A DNA stretch of 64,000 bases, from contig CP145416.1 of assembly GCA_036867785.1 (NCBI GenBank), positions 124,001 to 188,000 of the forward strand, given 5' to 3'. Source of the stretch: Plasmodiophora brassicae. Its lineage: Eukaryota. Numbering within the stretch: the first letter of the stretch is position 1; every line of letters starts with the position of its first letter. This document shows positions 6,145 through 24,726 of the stretch, piece by piece. The position numbers were made by a program, and so were the translations under genes. The notes below the pieces were generated by a model that was not told the DNA's origin, did no database searches, and saw only the letters and a list, made by a program, of their open reading frames with translations.

Positions 6145-7283
6145 ATGAAGTGCGGCGACGTGACGATCGTGGTCGACGGCGGGAACGTTGGGGTCCATCC
6201 CGGGCAGCAGGTCACTGGCAAAGTGGTGTTCGGGGCCGTGGATGGCCGGCCGTGTGCCCCCCGCGTTGTGCGTCTGGTGGTAGAAGGTACCGCCCACCTG
6301 ACGCTGTCGCCAAAGACAGTCGGCCTGTTCGAGGCGTTCTACTCGTCACTGCGCCCCGTCGTGCTTCAGAACCGCACGATTACGATCACGGAGCACCGAC
6401 CACGTACGGAACGCGCGCCAAAGTGCCCCCTGCAATTAGTGATACGTTACCTGGAACAGTGTTACCATCGCAGGCGACAGAGTTCCCCTTCTCGTTCGAC
6501 GTCGATGCCTGCGGGGAGCAACGTGTGCTTCCGTCGTTCAAGGGCAAACTCGTCAAGATCCGTTGGACAGTATCATGCTACACGGGGAGAGGGTTTATCC
6601 CATCAGCCCCGAAGGCCGTCAAGGAATTCCTTGTCGTTGCCAACCCGCCGTTCTGCACACCTGAGCCGATCCGTTCGCCATTCAAATCGCACGGCTATTG
6701 CCAGAACACCGGTATGCCTTCAGATGATGTTTCATCCGATGCATCGTGCCCTAATGTTTGCGAGAGGAAGATGATGGAGAAAGCCAGGTGGACCTCGAGA
6801 TTGACATTGAAGGCTTCGTCGAAAGCACGTCCTGCGACATGCGCTCACAGCCGCTGCAAGGCGAATTGAGTGTGCTCCGCTCAACGAAACGGATCCAATC
6901 AGTCGTCCTTCGCCTCAATAGAATCGAATCCATTGGTGCGCTATCCCTTCCGCGGTTGATCTTCGCAACCTCGATCCGCTAAGACATGTCGCATAGTGTA
7001 TAGCGAGGGGGATATATCAGAGAGAAGCGAGGTGTCGTCACTAGAGATCGCGGACGGTAACATTGCCAGAGGCCTGCCGATTCCAATTCATTTCCTGTGG
7101 CCACGTGGCACGTGCTGCCCAACACTTCGACATGAAGAATTTTCTGTTAGCCCTAGGTGACGTGCAACAAGCTTTCGGCATCTGACCCCCCTTTTGTTTT
7201 AGATTGGGTTCGAAATTGAACTTCGAATCAATTTCGCAACCGGGCAGTTCATGATCGAAAGAATCCCAGTCACGCTCCACTGA
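6145..7283 (+). CDS. VPS26C: VPS26C/DSCR3 (retriever subunit, arrestin fold), multi-exon
   Basis: LSPKTVGLFEAFYSSLRP, TEFPFSF, IQSVVLRLNRIES and LEIADGNIARGLPIPIHFLWPR match DSCR3-family motifs; last exon ends IPVTLH-TGA at 7281-7283. Confidence 0.85.
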
Positions 7284-7351
7284 TAAAATAATGCGATGAA
7301 TGAATCGGTTTTAGAGTAAGACGAGGCAATCCTAACGGCGTTTCCTGGTTG

Positions 7352-8264
7352 TCACCCGAACGCGATACGTTCAACTGTTGGCAACCAGGGCAGGATGGCG
7401 TCAATCGACGGTTCCGGGTCGGCCATCAGAAACTCGTTAAACGCGTCAGCGACTTCGTTGGCCTCCTGGCACGCAACGCGAATATCCAGAGGTATTTTGT
7501 CGACCGCTTTCTGCAACTACGAAACGTCATAAGCGAACGACGACTAGGATGACAGCGTCCCCCTACCCGAGCAATTTCCCCATCAAGGCGCATCGCATCT
7601 GACATTTTCTTAGCGATGGCCGCCATGACTCGCTGGCGAAGGTTGTCCCAGGTAACGTTCGACTCGACGGGAATGTCGTTTCCCAAGTAGATTTCCGAAT
7701 ATAAATGTTCCCAGATAGTCGTCTGCACGGACTTGCGAAGCATCGGGCGTTCCATGCGCCTTCGAATCTCGTCGTCTTCGAGCATGTCGCGAACACGCTT
7801 GCCCCAATCGCCAGAGCGTCCCACGGTGGGCCACTCATACAGCAAAGCGAGTTCTTTCACGACGATTCTCATGTCGTACTTCGTTTCGTCCAGTTGCGTC
7901 AACTAGTAATTGGTGACGTATCAGAACATGAGAATGCCGTCCGTACGAGTGTGCACCATACCGCGAAGCACTCCATCTCCCATTGCTCGACGAACGACTC
8001 CATACGTGCACTGGCTAACAATCTCGCAGGACCCCCTCTTCTCCATGACGCCTCGAGCGCCCTGATCGCAACTTGCTTCCGCAGCATCTCCGGGTGCGTT
8101 AACCTCGACCTCTGGGCTCCTCGGTGTACTGCTGTCGAGCGGCGCCGCCCCACTTCCGCATGGGTGGACGCCGAGTGCAAACGCACTGCAACTGCAACGG
8201 TACTCATCAGCGCCACTGCTAGGAGAAGGACGCGTCCAGCTGGCAGGCGGTGGATCGAGCGCAT
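7352..8264 (-). CDS. Hypothetical helical protein with possible signal peptide, multi-exon
   Basis: MRSIHRLPAGRVLLLAVALMSTVAVA hydrophobic N-terminus; coding-like exons at 7563-7900 and 7352-7520. Splicing not fully resolved. Confidence 0.4.
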
Positions 8265-19922: not shown

Positions 19923-21279
19923 ATGGTGTGCCTGCCGCCGTGCCTGGCGGGGACCCGCGTGGCGCCGGACGACGATGCCACGAAGCGGATCGACCAGGAG
20001 TTCCGCGAGGAACAGCGTGCCACGACGAACGTCTGCCGTCTGCTGCTCCTGGGGACCGGTACGTGATCATCCAGACGATACGCCTGATCTGTGGGTCACC
20101 CCAGCGGGTAATAATCAGGGAACTCGGGGAAGTCCACCCTGCTGAAGCAGCTGTTTGAGATCTATGGAACGCCCATGAACGATAGGGAGCGCCTGCTGTA
20201 CAAATCGGCGCTGTTTACCAACGCGGTCACATCTCTGGCAGTGCGTACAACGCCCCCGTTCGCCAACGAACAGCGCAGGCGCTGACGCCTCGCCAGGCTC
20301 TAATCGCGGCTGCGGAAACACTCGACGAGTCGCTGGGGACCCGGCTGGCCGGCGATGCGGTCGAGTGCAGGGACGCGTTCAAGCGGTTCCAGTCGCAGCT
20401 GGCCGTATGGGACAAGCCCGCCCGACCGCCCGGCCCCGACATCGCCTACGTCATGTCGAGGCTCTGGGCTGACAAAGGCATCCAGAACGCGTACAGCAAC
20501 CGGACGAAATTCAACCTGCCCGATTCCGCGGCCTACGTGCTCGACAAGGTCTACGACTGGGTGTCCGAGGACTATGTCCCCACCAAGCAGGACGTCGTCA
20601 TGGCCCGCATCCGGACCACTGGTAGGGAGCGCGCGCCCCTGTTGTGCCACCTGGCTTGCCAACGACGTCTGGGCGCTCTCGCAGGGATCGTCGAGCGCGA
20701 GTTCCGGTTCCAGCAGACGACCCTGTTCAAATTGGTGGACGTCGGCGGGCAGAGGAACGAACGGCGGAAATGGCGTAAGGGCGACGACGTCGCGGTTGCG
20801 CCAGGCGCGCCTATAGGTTCCCTCACATGACACGTGCGCGCATAGTGCATTGCTTCTCGGACGTCGGCGCGATCATCTTCGTCGTGTCGCTGTCCGACTT
20901 CGAGCTGCGCCTCGAGGAGGACTCGTCCGTGAATCGCCTGCACGAGGCGATCACGTTGTTCTCCGAGATCTGCAACTACCCCAGCTTCGAGAACATCCCC
21001 ATCATTCTGTTCCTCAACAAGAAGGACATCCTGAAGCAGCGGCTGGCCGAGGGCGCCAACCTGCGCACCGCCTTCCCCGAGTACGTGGGCCCATCCACGT
21101 ACGACGACGTCGTCGACTACATCGGCAGGGCGTTGCACAAGGTGAACAGGGACCGGCGCAAGACGATCCTGACGTACAGGACGTGCGCGACCGACGCCGA
21201 TAACGTCAAGCGGGTGTTCGAGGCGCTGTCCCGGGTCCTGATCGAGCGCAGCCTGCAGGACAGCGGCCTGATTGTATAA
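19923..21279 (+). CDS. Heterotrimeric G-protein alpha subunit, multi-exon
   Basis: RLLLLGTGNSGKST, ARIRTTGI, DVGGQRNERRKW, LFLNKKD and TCATD. Confidence 0.95.
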
Positions 21280-21304: not shown

Positions 21305-24300
21305 TCACCAGTACTCGCCGCACGAGCAGCGACCGTCGCGGAACTGGTGGTGCCTGATCACGTCCCGCACCGATATGTGCCGGACGTAGATCGCCGACGC
21401 CCGCCGGGCCGCCTCGTGGCAATCGTCGCACAGCCTATAATCCACCGCGAGGCGCACAGGTGACGACGTCCCGGGCGCGCTTAGGGCGTACGCCAGCGCG
21501 ACCTTCGCGCCGTGCTGAAGGACGGCCGGTCGCCGGTGGCCCGTACCTTCGGACGGCAACGCAGGCACGTCGGGGGCGTACCCGTGCGCACGCAGGGCCA
21601 CCATCAGGTCGTCGAGCGCCGACCGCAACCCGGCGTCGTCGTCGAGCCGCGAATCGCTGGACGAGAAGCGGACGGTCCGGCCGGGGGCCAGTAGCGACGC
21701 CTGGCCTGGTCTCGGGTCGGACGTCGTCAGCCCCCGGGCGGCCATCTCGTCGCGCAGGCGCACGACGTCGTCCTGGCGGCCGCTGCGCGCGTACGCGTCC
21801 ATCATCAGCGCGAAGCACAACGCCAGGACGCGCTGCGAGACGACGCCGTCCAGCGATCGGAAGGCGCGCTCGGCGCCGGGCACGTCGCCGTGGTGGCGGC
21901 ACGCGACCAGGACCAGGCGCCAGGACGGGGCGCTGCCCCAGTGGCCTAGCTGGTCAGGAGTACTAGCAACAGGTCAGCAAGCAGTCGCGGGACCGCAAGG
22001 TCCCCAGTTCGAGGCACGAACTCCCCCAAAAAAGTCCCGGTGACCAACAGCCGTAAATGTTGAAGGGGTGTTTACTGATCAGGCAGCCCAAAGTGCCAGA
22101 GCAATTAGGGGTCTCGCTTGAGCGTCTGGGAGGTAAAGGAACGGCCCGTAACAAGTGTATGTCGGCTCCCCGGCATAGGCGGTATGGCGAAAGAGGTCCG
22201 ACAAGAGTGCAGTCGACAAGTCCGAGCGAATCACGTCCCGTTCCGATATCGTCCAAGGCGCGATGAACCCAGTACAAAGGTGACGGGCCGGCACTGCCAG
22301 GCCGGGGGATGTTGGCGTTCTGCTGCTGATCCTTCGATCCTCGGACTCGAGACCGAGGCGCCTGCGTGAAAAGAAAAAGCGCGAAAAACAAATAAAACCA
22401 AACCAAAACCAGGCGCCAGGACGTCGGGCGCGCATGCGTCGACGTCGTCGCCAGGCGCTCCGCCTCGGCCAGGTCGCCGTGCCGGCCGTGAAGGTCGATC
22501 AGGCAGTTCAGGGCGTGCGTCGACCAGACGTCGACGTCGTTCCCCGACATGATCGCCTGGGCGCGGGCGAGGTCGCCGACATGGCTGCAGGCGGTCAGCA
22601 GCGACGCGAACGTCTGCTCGGTGGGCGGCACCGTCATCGCGTCGAACGTGGCGATCGCGTCGTCCAGGGCGCCGTGTTCGCCGTACGCGCCGATCATCGC
22701 GTTGACGGGCAGCACCGACGTCGTCGTCGTCGTCGCGATCGACGAGAACAGGGCGCGGGCGGCGGCGAGGTCGCCGCAATGCGAGTACGCGGTGATGAAC
22801 GCGCTGGCGACGGCCGCGTCCGACACGAGCAACCCCTTGGTGCGGGCGTGGTCGTGCAGGCGGTCGACGGCGGCGACGTCCGAGCACCGGGCGCAGGCGC
22901 CGACCAGTTGCCGGAGGAGGGGTGCGTCGACCGGCAGGCCGCGTGCGACCATCGCCTCGAACGTGGCCATCGCGTCGCGCAGGCGATGGCCCTGCGCGAA
23001 CGCCACCAGCATCGTCGTGTACGTCGGCAGGGTCGGCGACAGGCCAGACGACCGCATGCGCCGCAACAGGGCCAGCGCGTTCGTCAGCGACCCGTGGCGC
23101 GCGTACGCGCCCAGCATCGCGTTGAACGGGACCACGCCGGGCGACGCCGCCTGATGGAACAGGCGCTCGGCGGCCGGCAGGTCCCCGCAGCGGTCGTACG
23201 CGGCGATCAACGCGCTGACGACGACGTCGTCCTGCAGCATGCGCTTCGTCGACGCGTACGCGTGCAGCGACTCGACGGCGCCGACGACGCCGGTGCAGCG
23301 GCCGCACGCCCCGATGACCAGGCCGAGCAGGGCGCGGTCGACGTCGTGGCCGGCGCCCACCATCTCGTTCAGCAGGTCGACGGCGTCGGCGAGGCGGTCG
23401 TCGCGGACGAGCGCGACGACCAGCGTCGTGTACGACCGGCGGCAGGGCGACGTGATGCGCCGGAAGACGGAGAGGGCGTTCAGCAGCAGGCGGTGGTGGG
23501 CGTACGCGGCCAGCATGGCGTTGTAGACGGCGACGGACTGGATCAGGGCCGGGTCCCGGCGCTGGAAGACGCCCTCGGCGGCGGCCAGGTCGCCGCACCG
23601 GTCGAACGCGGCGATGAACGCCGACACGACGACGTCGCTGGTGAACAGGCCGCACCGGGTGGCGTACGCGGCCAGCGCCCGCACCGCGTCGCGGTCGACG
23701 ACCCGGCCGCAGGCGGCGACGACCTGGCTGAACACGGGCACGTCGACGTGGACGCGCCCGGCGACCATGACGCGGAGCAGGGCGAGGGCGTCGCGCGCCC
23801 GCCCGCCCTTGGCCAGCGCCGACGTCACGTGCGTGTAGATGCGGTCGGACGGCGCGTCCAGCACGTCGAGGACGCGCAGGGCGGCGTCCAGGCGCCGCCC
23901 TGCGACCAGCGCCTTGACCAGGTTGCCGAAGGCGGCGTTGCACGACGTGTGGATCGCCAGGTCGAGCAGGCGCTCGGCGGTGGCGGGGCAGGGCGCTTCG
24001 GCGGCGCAGGCGGCCAGGATGGAGAACAGCCTGGGGCTGATGGCGACGTCGTGGGCGACGGCGTCGCCGACCAGGAACAGGGCGGAGGCGGGCCGGTTCG
24101 CCACGCGGCACACGTGCGCCAGGCCGAGCATGGCGTCGTGCGTCCTGGGCGCCGCCGTCGCGTACCCGTCGAGGGCGGCGCCGACGTTCGGCGGCGTCGT
24201 GCGCAGGCAGGCGGCGAGGAACGCGCCGAACAGCGCGTCGTTGACGGCGAGGCGGCGCGCGGCAACGACGGACAGCACGTCGGGCGCTTTGGCCGGCGCG

Positions 24301-24560
24301 TGCGCCTTGCAGAACGACATCATCGTCGTGAAGAAGCGGACGTCGGCGGGCAGGCCGGATTGCAGGACGGCGTCGAGGATGAGCCAGGCGCGCGCCGGGT
24401 GCGTCTCCCGCTGCAGGGCGCGCACCGCCAGCGGGACCGTGCGCCGCGCCAGGAACCGGCGGTACTCGGGCGACGCGCCCGTCGCCTGGCGGTGCGGCCA
24501 GGCGCCCGCCGTCAGGTACGGGTTCGCCGTCGTGTGGCGCGCCCGCACCCGGAATTGCAT
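21305..24560 (-). pseudogene. Pentatricopeptide-repeat protein with a C-terminal DYW-like domain, interrupted by a SINE insertion
   Basis: Many 35-aa PPR repeats (e.g. SAFIAAFDRCGDLAAAEGVF, YNAMLAAYAHH) and a C-terminus CDDCH...RD..RHHQFRDGRCSCGEYW. Removing 21928-22423 restores one frame (PTSWRLVLVACRHHGDVPGAERAF). Confidence 0.88.
21928..22407 (+). mobile_element. tRNA-derived SINE-like retroposon, 480 bp, with a 16-bp target-site duplication
   Basis: ACCAGGCGCCAGGACG at both 21912-21927 and 22408-22423; 5' head GCCCCAGTGGCCTAGCTGG (A-box-like) and GTTCGAGGC (B-box-like); 3' stem-loop CCTCGG-ACTCGAGA-CCGAGG; A-rich tail ending AAAACCAAACCAAA. Confidence 0.85.
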
Positions 24561-24726
24561 TTGGCGGCGCGCGCACACGGCTCCAGCAGCCTAGCTAGAT
24601 CGACGACGGCGAGTCTGCCTGGTCGTCTCTATCGACAACGCGACGCGGCACAGGGATGAGGGTATCATCAGCGGCGTTTTCGTTGTTATGTAAACTGGCA
24701 TGTATGGCAGGCGTGTGCCCGGGCGC

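Follow-up and report, generated by a model that had tools for sequence, protein, structure and literature searches.

The window analyzed here is a 64,000-nt stretch of the genome of Plasmodiophora brassicae (contig CP145416.1, positions 124,001-188,000), and positions given without further label are counted from its first letter. A minus-strand gene of the RNA-editing type, encoding PPR repeats and a DYW deaminase domain, is interrupted by a 480-bp insert (21928-22407) with a GC content of 57.5%, versus 73% in the flanking DNA. The insert is bounded by identical copies of a 16-bp target-site duplication (TSD), ACCAGGCGCCAGGACG, at 21912-21927 and 22408-22423. An earlier, sequence-only reading had reported a lower-GC insert of this size within a perfect 16-bp duplication and had placed it in coding sequence. 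Both statements hold, with the PPR repeats on one side and the DYW domain on the other, on the minus strand, and the six motifs that it quoted occur once each, at 21935, 22007, 21989, 22006, 22045, and 22339. The features of the locus are as follows.

21305-21911, minus strand: downstream part of the host gene, DYW deaminase domain, severed by the insertion
21912-21927, plus strand: TSD, 5′ copy, 16 bp
21928-22407, plus strand: SINE, full-length, of the youngest subfamily, its core the same as that of four other copies
21928-21934, plus strand: short 5′ leader before the tRNA-related part, which can pair with the GCCCC that follows
21935-22015, plus strand: tRNA-derived head corresponding to tRNA nt 1-61, tRNA-Ile(AAT) being the best match, with a ~20-nt insertion after the D loop in young copies
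21942-21953, plus strand: A-box-like motif (by what we take to be the consensus), differing at one or two positions in older subfamilies
22007-22015, plus strand: B-box-like motif, conserved across all aligned subfamilies
22016-22061, plus strand: linker with an A-run and the CAACA/TGTTG hairpin, its border with the LINE-derived part approximate
22062-22388, plus strand: body derived from a LINE 3′ UTR, with ~50-60% identity to LINE subfamily A upstream and 88% in the last ~122 aligned columns
22109-22270, plus strand: nested long-range helices common to the LINE, with two-sided changes at 7 pairs between SINE and LINE
~22109-22115/22262-22270, 22122-22129/22253-22261, and 22138-22144/22238-22244, plus strand: partners of the nested helices
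22286-22382, plus strand: series of terminal hairpins, including the stem-loop at 22339-22358 singled out in the earlier reading
22359-22364, plus strand: CGCCTG, for which pairing with the beginning of the LINE-derived segment is predicted
22389-22407, plus strand: tail, CAAATAA and then (AAACC)n; (AAACT)n in older copies and LINE A
22408-22423, plus strand: TSD, 3′ copy
22424-24590, minus strand: upstream part of the host gene, PPR repeat array

The PPR-DYW gene has no introns, and the SINE lies antisense to it; without the element and one TSD, the reading frame stays open over 929 codons. As it stands, the PPR frame extends ~148 codons into the antisense SINE and reaches a stop at 21963, before the DYW domain. 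The insertion probably matters little to the host, since 43 DYW domains occur in this genome (41 of them in open frames of at least 450 residues) and since the deaminase of this gene already lacked what we take to be the catalytic Glu, its first zinc motif reading HGAK. A protein search for an uninterrupted host allele, from which records of the source genome were possibly excluded, returned only distant plant-type PPR proteins. We found no paper on DYW RNA editing in Plasmodiophora; the accessible part of PMC8298192 mentions PPR genes and no more. Separately, a second DYW domain occupies a short (172-aa) frame at G000:C7:245663-245884. A gene that resembles a G-protein alpha subunit, judged from its translation, lies at 20500-21279 on the plus strand of the window, convergent with the PPR-DYW gene and 25 bp from its stop codon.

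The element belongs to a dispersed family. A BLAST search of the source genome (25.3 Mb, 20 contigs), in which 40 of 91 candidates were scored, gave at least 48 SINE matches, distributed over at least 14 of the 20 contigs. Seventeen copies are near-full-length, at 93-100% identity, and 16 of them begin with the same base. Fifteen carry their own TSD of 11-16 bp and the remaining two carry one another's, so that the multi-copy family with independent TSDs envisaged in the sequence-only reading is indeed present. That reading had also proposed recent activity, and five of the ten youngest copies are identical in their core sequence; older layers lie at ~95% and 84-86% identity, and many copies are truncated at the 5′ end. 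The near-full-length copies all have (AAACC)n or (AAACT)n tails, and several of them have a few extra bases at the 5′ junction. In 11 of 15 copies the first letters of the TSD are also the last letters of the tail unit, as microhomology between tail and target would produce, and the boundary of the TSD is ambiguous for the same reason. Variable TSDs, a repeat tail, and 5′ truncation together are the hallmarks of target-primed reverse transcription (TPRT). Three of the 15 full-length copies that were tested disrupt an open frame longer than 500 codons (judged from fetched flanks, with introns ignored).

With 480 bp, the element falls below the 1-kb size used by SINEBase and is interspersed, non-tandem, and non-autonomous, with no conserved ORF of its own on the plus strand. 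Its 400-nt body and subfamily-specific diagnostic changes set it apart from tRNA pseudogenes, a distinction on which SINEBase also relies. According to the text available to us, SINEBase usually demands at least 100 copies and makes an exception for repeat-poor genomes (PMC3531059). The number found here is lower (at least 48, and 25 loci with a head), and the exception plausibly applies because the genome is 25 Mb in size.

An identical pair of SINEs in inverted orientation was observed at L041:2553-3042 and 6876-7365 (G000:C3:493559-498354), where the two copies have exchanged TSDs. Such an arrangement would result if SINEs had inserted independently into two copies of a host repeat, at sites 146 nt apart, and recombination had then inverted the DNA between them. 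The pair thus seems to have caused one 3.8-kb inversion, an assembly error being the other possible origin of the arrangement. Since one host reading frame has been knocked out and a 3.8-kb inversion is apparent, the SINE contributes to present genome change and provides presence/absence markers.

The sequence-only reading had described a tRNA-like head, and its origin from a tRNA is borne out by comparison with the source genome's own tRNAs (63 of 457 candidates were scored, and several isotypes are not in the set). L027, a copy of the old type, matches nt 1-61 of tRNA-Ile(AAT) at 40 of 61 positions (66%) with one gap, a score reached by none of 300 shuffles, also when the A and B boxes were held fixed. 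The copy in the window matches 45 of the 61 tRNA nucleotides when gaps allow for its insertion. SINEBase, in the part seen, asks for at least 60% identity to tRNA, 5S, or 7SL RNA over at least 60 nt (PMC3531059), and L027 lies above both values. An 18-nt pattern that covers the variable loop and the B box occurred 31 times, in 25 SINE heads and 6 tRNA-Ile genes and nowhere else, against 0 occurrences in the control. The head most likely comes from tRNA-Ile(AAT), on the strength of these alignments; the isotype is probable and not certain, because tRNA-Asn scores a close second and ranks first for copy L012. ARAGORN detected no tRNA in the window. All of the heads, at 25 loci plus four tandem repeats, lie inside SINE copies (25 of 25 candidates scored).

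The spacing between the A and B boxes is 65 nt in young copies, which carry the ~20-nt insertion, versus 44 nt in the old type, and the A box of older subfamilies deviates from what we take to be the consensus. No T4 run was present on the plus strand in five of five SINE copies checked. We infer from the internal A and B boxes that RNA polymerase III transcribes the source copies. Such boxes are an indication of transcription by this polymerase, and not proof, in the consulted portion of the SINEBase paper (PMC3531059). The hairpins that had been pointed out in the sequence-only reading fared less well. All four lie wholly or partly in the minimum free energy (MFE) fold, but the fold of a single copy is unexceptional (z = -1.8), with equally good folds in 5 of 100 shuffles. 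The hairpins of the head are weak evidence, because the one with the GNRA loop is made of a remnant of the tRNA anticodon stem and variable loop and the one over the B box has a mismatch in the middle subfamily.

The search for a partner began from reverse transcriptase (RT; 150 of 194 candidates scored), after which 20 candidate loci were read. Two LINE subfamilies share the 3′ end of the SINE, as had been anticipated: L044 (subfamily A) matches SINE nt 333-480 at 82% and L045 (subfamily B) matches nt 338-469 at 77%, which places a LINE with the same 3′ end in the same genome, as in stringent SINE/LINE pairs. Both encode an apurinic-type endonuclease (APE), RT, and RNase H, have TSDs of 13-14 bp, and carry (AAACT)n or (AACTT)n tails. 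In the last ~122 columns the SINE is nearer to LINE A than to LINE B (88% vs. 82%). The sequence-only reading was right about the common 3′ end but had centered it on the terminal stem-loop, whereas the shared part takes in the greater portion of the 3′ UTR. The alignment of SINE nt 121-332 with the LINE A UTR is better than that of any of 500 shuffles, and 1 of 500 did as well for LINE B; nt 1-120 gave no real alignment to the LINE UTRs, with 68 of 500 (A) and 290 of 500 (B) shuffles as good. By these alignments, the SINE body of ~340 nt follows most of the LINE 3′ UTR.

The LINE copies themselves are damaged. L044 has a 2.3-kb insertion in ORF2, L045 has lost the greater part of ORF1, and interruptions or truncations affect L046, L047, and L061. 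Among the LINE loci read, none was intact in both ORFs and none had an (AAACC)n tail, so that no driver of the youngest SINE burst was seen there. The partner LINE combines an APE-RT-RNase H ORF2 that has a C-terminal CCHC motif with an ORF1 bearing zinc knuckles, an architecture that we take to be that of the I group (a grouping by architecture). Its closest RT relatives are five unnamed proteins at 44-47% identity, with no named reference element among the close matches, after which identity drops to ~33%. It resembles the I-group LINEs (I, Nimb, Tad1, R1, Ingi) in having APE, RT, RNase H, the C-terminal CCHC motif, and a zinc-knuckle ORF1, and differs from them in its reading frames: ORF2 is in frame with the start of ORF1, and the half of ORF1 that bears the zinc knuckles is in the -1 frame.

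The N-terminal half of ORF1 thus shares the open frame of ORF2. An A-AAA-AAC heptamer stands at the switch of frame in L046 (at nt ~1482 of the oriented locus, minus strand of G000:C17:545000-554900) and again in L165 (L165:1899), a metagenomic relative with 40% protein identity; in L044 (L044:1670-1700) the switch adjoins a C7 run, and P0001-P0005 have the same long open linker. This LINE is accordingly a candidate for an inverted -1 frameshift layout, in which Gag would need the slip and Pol would not. We found no such layout of a LINE in the literature; HeT-A gag is named as a non-LTR case of frameshifting in the section consulted (PMC5009743). The frame layout may be a more surprising object than the SINE itself.

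Several other features of the LINE loci were observed. The 2.3-kb element in ORF2 (L044:6285-8565) contains ~110-nt tandem repeats and has terminal direct repeats. At the end of G000:C8 (L080:1674-1750), a LINE 3′ end leads straight into telomeric (TTTTAGGG)n repeats. Among ten LINE-B copies truncated within the UTR (93% identity or more), four (L245-L248; G000:C8:804204, C1:34761, C11:72957, C17:468826) begin within one 6-nt window; every one of the four has a separate TSD of 13-16 bp, and at least two sequence variants are represented. A structure-defined stop of RT or a defined RNA 5′ end is a candidate explanation for this common start; no ribozyme model fits it. A second SINE family had been considered behind four matches with a common 5′ boundary and was rejected, these being 5′-truncated ends of LINE-B with their own TSDs (five of nine loci).

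A joint fold of 8 SINE and 9 LINE sequences contains 56 pairs, with 96% of cells paired. In it, a helix links the beginning of the segment with the terminal CGCCTG, and there are also four nested long-range helices and the hairpins of the 3′ end. Two-sided changes occur at 13 pairs (7 of them in the nested helices) versus at most 5 with slid partners, on one SINE-versus-LINE branch, with the structure taken from the same alignment and its first ~90 columns misaligned. In two pair-counting measures the fold does not stand out from shuffles (79 of 500 and 333 of 500 as good). These comparisons suggest that the long-range helices have been retained through changes on both sides between SINE and LINE, along that one branch. 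The comparison of SINE with LINE is a ready model of a large, structured 3′ UTR.

Two metagenomic relatives of the LINE end, by eye, in the order hairpin, CGCCYG, hairpin, with other pentamer tails. BLASTN of the SINE and LINE UTRs against 80 metagenomic loci gave a single 17-nt chance match. Two metagenomic LINE 3′ UTRs (L165:6428-6490, L166:4790-4850) open with a shared hairpin, a G-run, and a T-loop/B-box-like motif; a tRNA-like unit that was considered there gave no match to the Rfam tRNA model. Group I introns, RNase P/MRP, and known ribozymes had been considered because of sequence motifs and were dropped, since Rfam gave nothing beyond chance matches when run on the element, an old copy, the LINE A UTR, and the two metagenomic LINE UTRs.

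Taken together, the element is very probably a real, young, tRNA-derived SINE of the stringent, LINE-tailed type with a resident LINE partner. In the mechanism that we propose, the first ~60 nt of a tRNA, probably tRNA-Ile, would have been fused to almost all of the 3′ UTR of a resident APE-RT-RNase H LINE. Source copies would be transcribed by RNA polymerase III from the internal A and B boxes. The ORF2 protein of the LINE would recognize the UTR-derived fold and nick the target, priming would take place on the (AAACC/AAACT)n tail through a few bases of tail-target microhomology, and reverse transcription would proceed in place. The outcome would be TSDs of 11-16 bp and frequent 5′ truncation, and the copy in the window landed antisense in the intronless PPR-DYW gene. 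A more specific proposal, which we consider possible and hold only tentatively, is that the recognition signal of the LINE is, instead of a terminal stem-loop, a multi-helix domain of ~340 nt with a long-range closing helix, which the SINE would have been constrained to preserve as its sequence diverged to 50-60% identity, and that the partner represents an unnamed clade of RNase H-bearing LINEs with a zinc-knuckle ORF1 reached by a -1 shift and an unshifted ORF2. If this is true, the pair would be the first SINE/LINE pair worked out in Rhizaria and would offer natural compensatory variants for testing how a LINE RT reads its RNA.

The strongest alternative is that the element is a non-autonomous derivative of the LINE that depends on RNA polymerase II, with a head that is the 5′ end of a LINE or an inactive tRNA relic, and copies made from read-through transcripts; our model for it is the RIME/SIDER class. 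Such a derivative would suit a body that is almost the entire LINE 3′ UTR, an A box that is imperfect in older copies, the 7-nt leader that full-length copies share upstream of the tRNA start, and the tandem repeats of head nt 45-99 in three old copies. The head, however, matches a host tRNA, and the SINE query matched LINE loci at their 3′ ends only and neither of the two types of LINE 5′ end read, so that the 5′ homology of RIME/SIDER elements to their LINEs is lacking here. The same start base in 16 of 17 near-full-length copies is, moreover, what a fixed start from an internal promoter would give. We regard this alternative as unlikely and retain the tRNA-derived SINE as the preferred reading. 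The repeats of head nt 45-99 occur two or three times in tandem in three old-type SINEs (L023, L024, L025; G000:C7:130418-155437), which have a common flanking context.

Junctions were checked in contigs of four runs from four studies, among 20 runs from 14 studies that cover the stretch. Contigs of X1 and X2 cross the 5′ junction and contigs of X1 and X10 cross the 3′ junction, X1 possibly being the source sample; in run X20 the flank contigs stop just inside the element, short of our 31-letter rule. The suggestion that the insertion is polymorphic, with empty-site alleles, was not borne out, as no empty-site joint occurred in any of the four runs, in contigs that drop rare alleles. It is very improbable that the copies were retrotransposed from a structured RNA of the cell, or that the element behaves like an intron, group I-like or spliceosomal, whose removal from the host mRNA leaves the gene working. 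In favor of such a reading, the element has structure, and on the gene strand GT and AG dinucleotides are found close to its ends. Rfam, on the other side, identified no family in the element (sub-threshold chance matches only), in an old copy, or in the LINE UTR; the body is LINE-derived, the subfamilies share diagnostic changes, and no element-skipping joint was seen in the four runs, whose status as RNA is a guess. An assembly artefact or a chance repeat, for which the dependence of most data on a single assembly might speak, is scarcely credible, since independent TSDs occur at 15 other or same-family loci and the junctions are bridged by contigs from different studies (X1 being possibly the source sample).

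SINE/LINE pairs are textbook biology, and the class of the element is no surprise. Shared SINE/LINE 3′ ends are general: the part of Ohshima (2013; PMC3747384) available to us treats tobacco TS with its RTE partner and 58 SINE/LINE pairs with a LINE-derived 3′ end, of the stringent type. The present family resembles stringent tRNA SINEs as described there in its tRNA head, LINE-shared 3′ end, short-repeat tail, TSDs, and 3′ stem-loop, and we identified no central conserved domain in it. Unlike TS, in which the shared end is ~100 nt in that account, the LINE-derived part here is ~340 nt and keeps its long-range helices; and whereas CR1 and RTE partners predominate in the pairs surveyed in the part seen (PMC3747384), the partner here is an RNase H-bearing LINE. 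Low-copy SINEs of fungi and oomycetes, as far as the accessible text goes, include AfuSINE2-1a, with an I/Tad1-like 3′ end, and the infSINEs cited with it (PMC5063351). The likeness to these lies in a small microbial genome, tens of copies, a tRNA head, and a 3′ end like that of an I-group LINE, and is one of description; the present host belongs to a different supergroup, and several age-layered subfamilies and the structured UTR of the partner are resolved here.

We found no description of this SINE family, and none of short interspersed elements in Plasmodiophora, in the literature, with Dfam and Repbase outside the comparison. SINE and LINE appear among the automated repeat classes in the part of a P. 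brassicae genome paper that we saw, without description (10.1101/2024.04.03.587992), and the main text of a pangenome preprint, as far as available, does not contain SINE as a whole word (10.64898/2026.10.14.759018). Neither SINE nor LINE occurs as a whole word in the accessible supplement of PMC11191646, whose Table S2, like the bioRxiv supplements, may list the family as an unnamed RepeatModeler consensus. The SINE is apparently not yet described in the lineage of P. brassicae, and it represents a young, age-layered family in a lineage for which we found no described SINE. Elsewhere in the window, long inverted repeats in lower-GC DNA (53767-54265 and 30993-31205) are MITE-like, and two arrays (29490-39370 and 58592-63856) contain three paralogous genes each.
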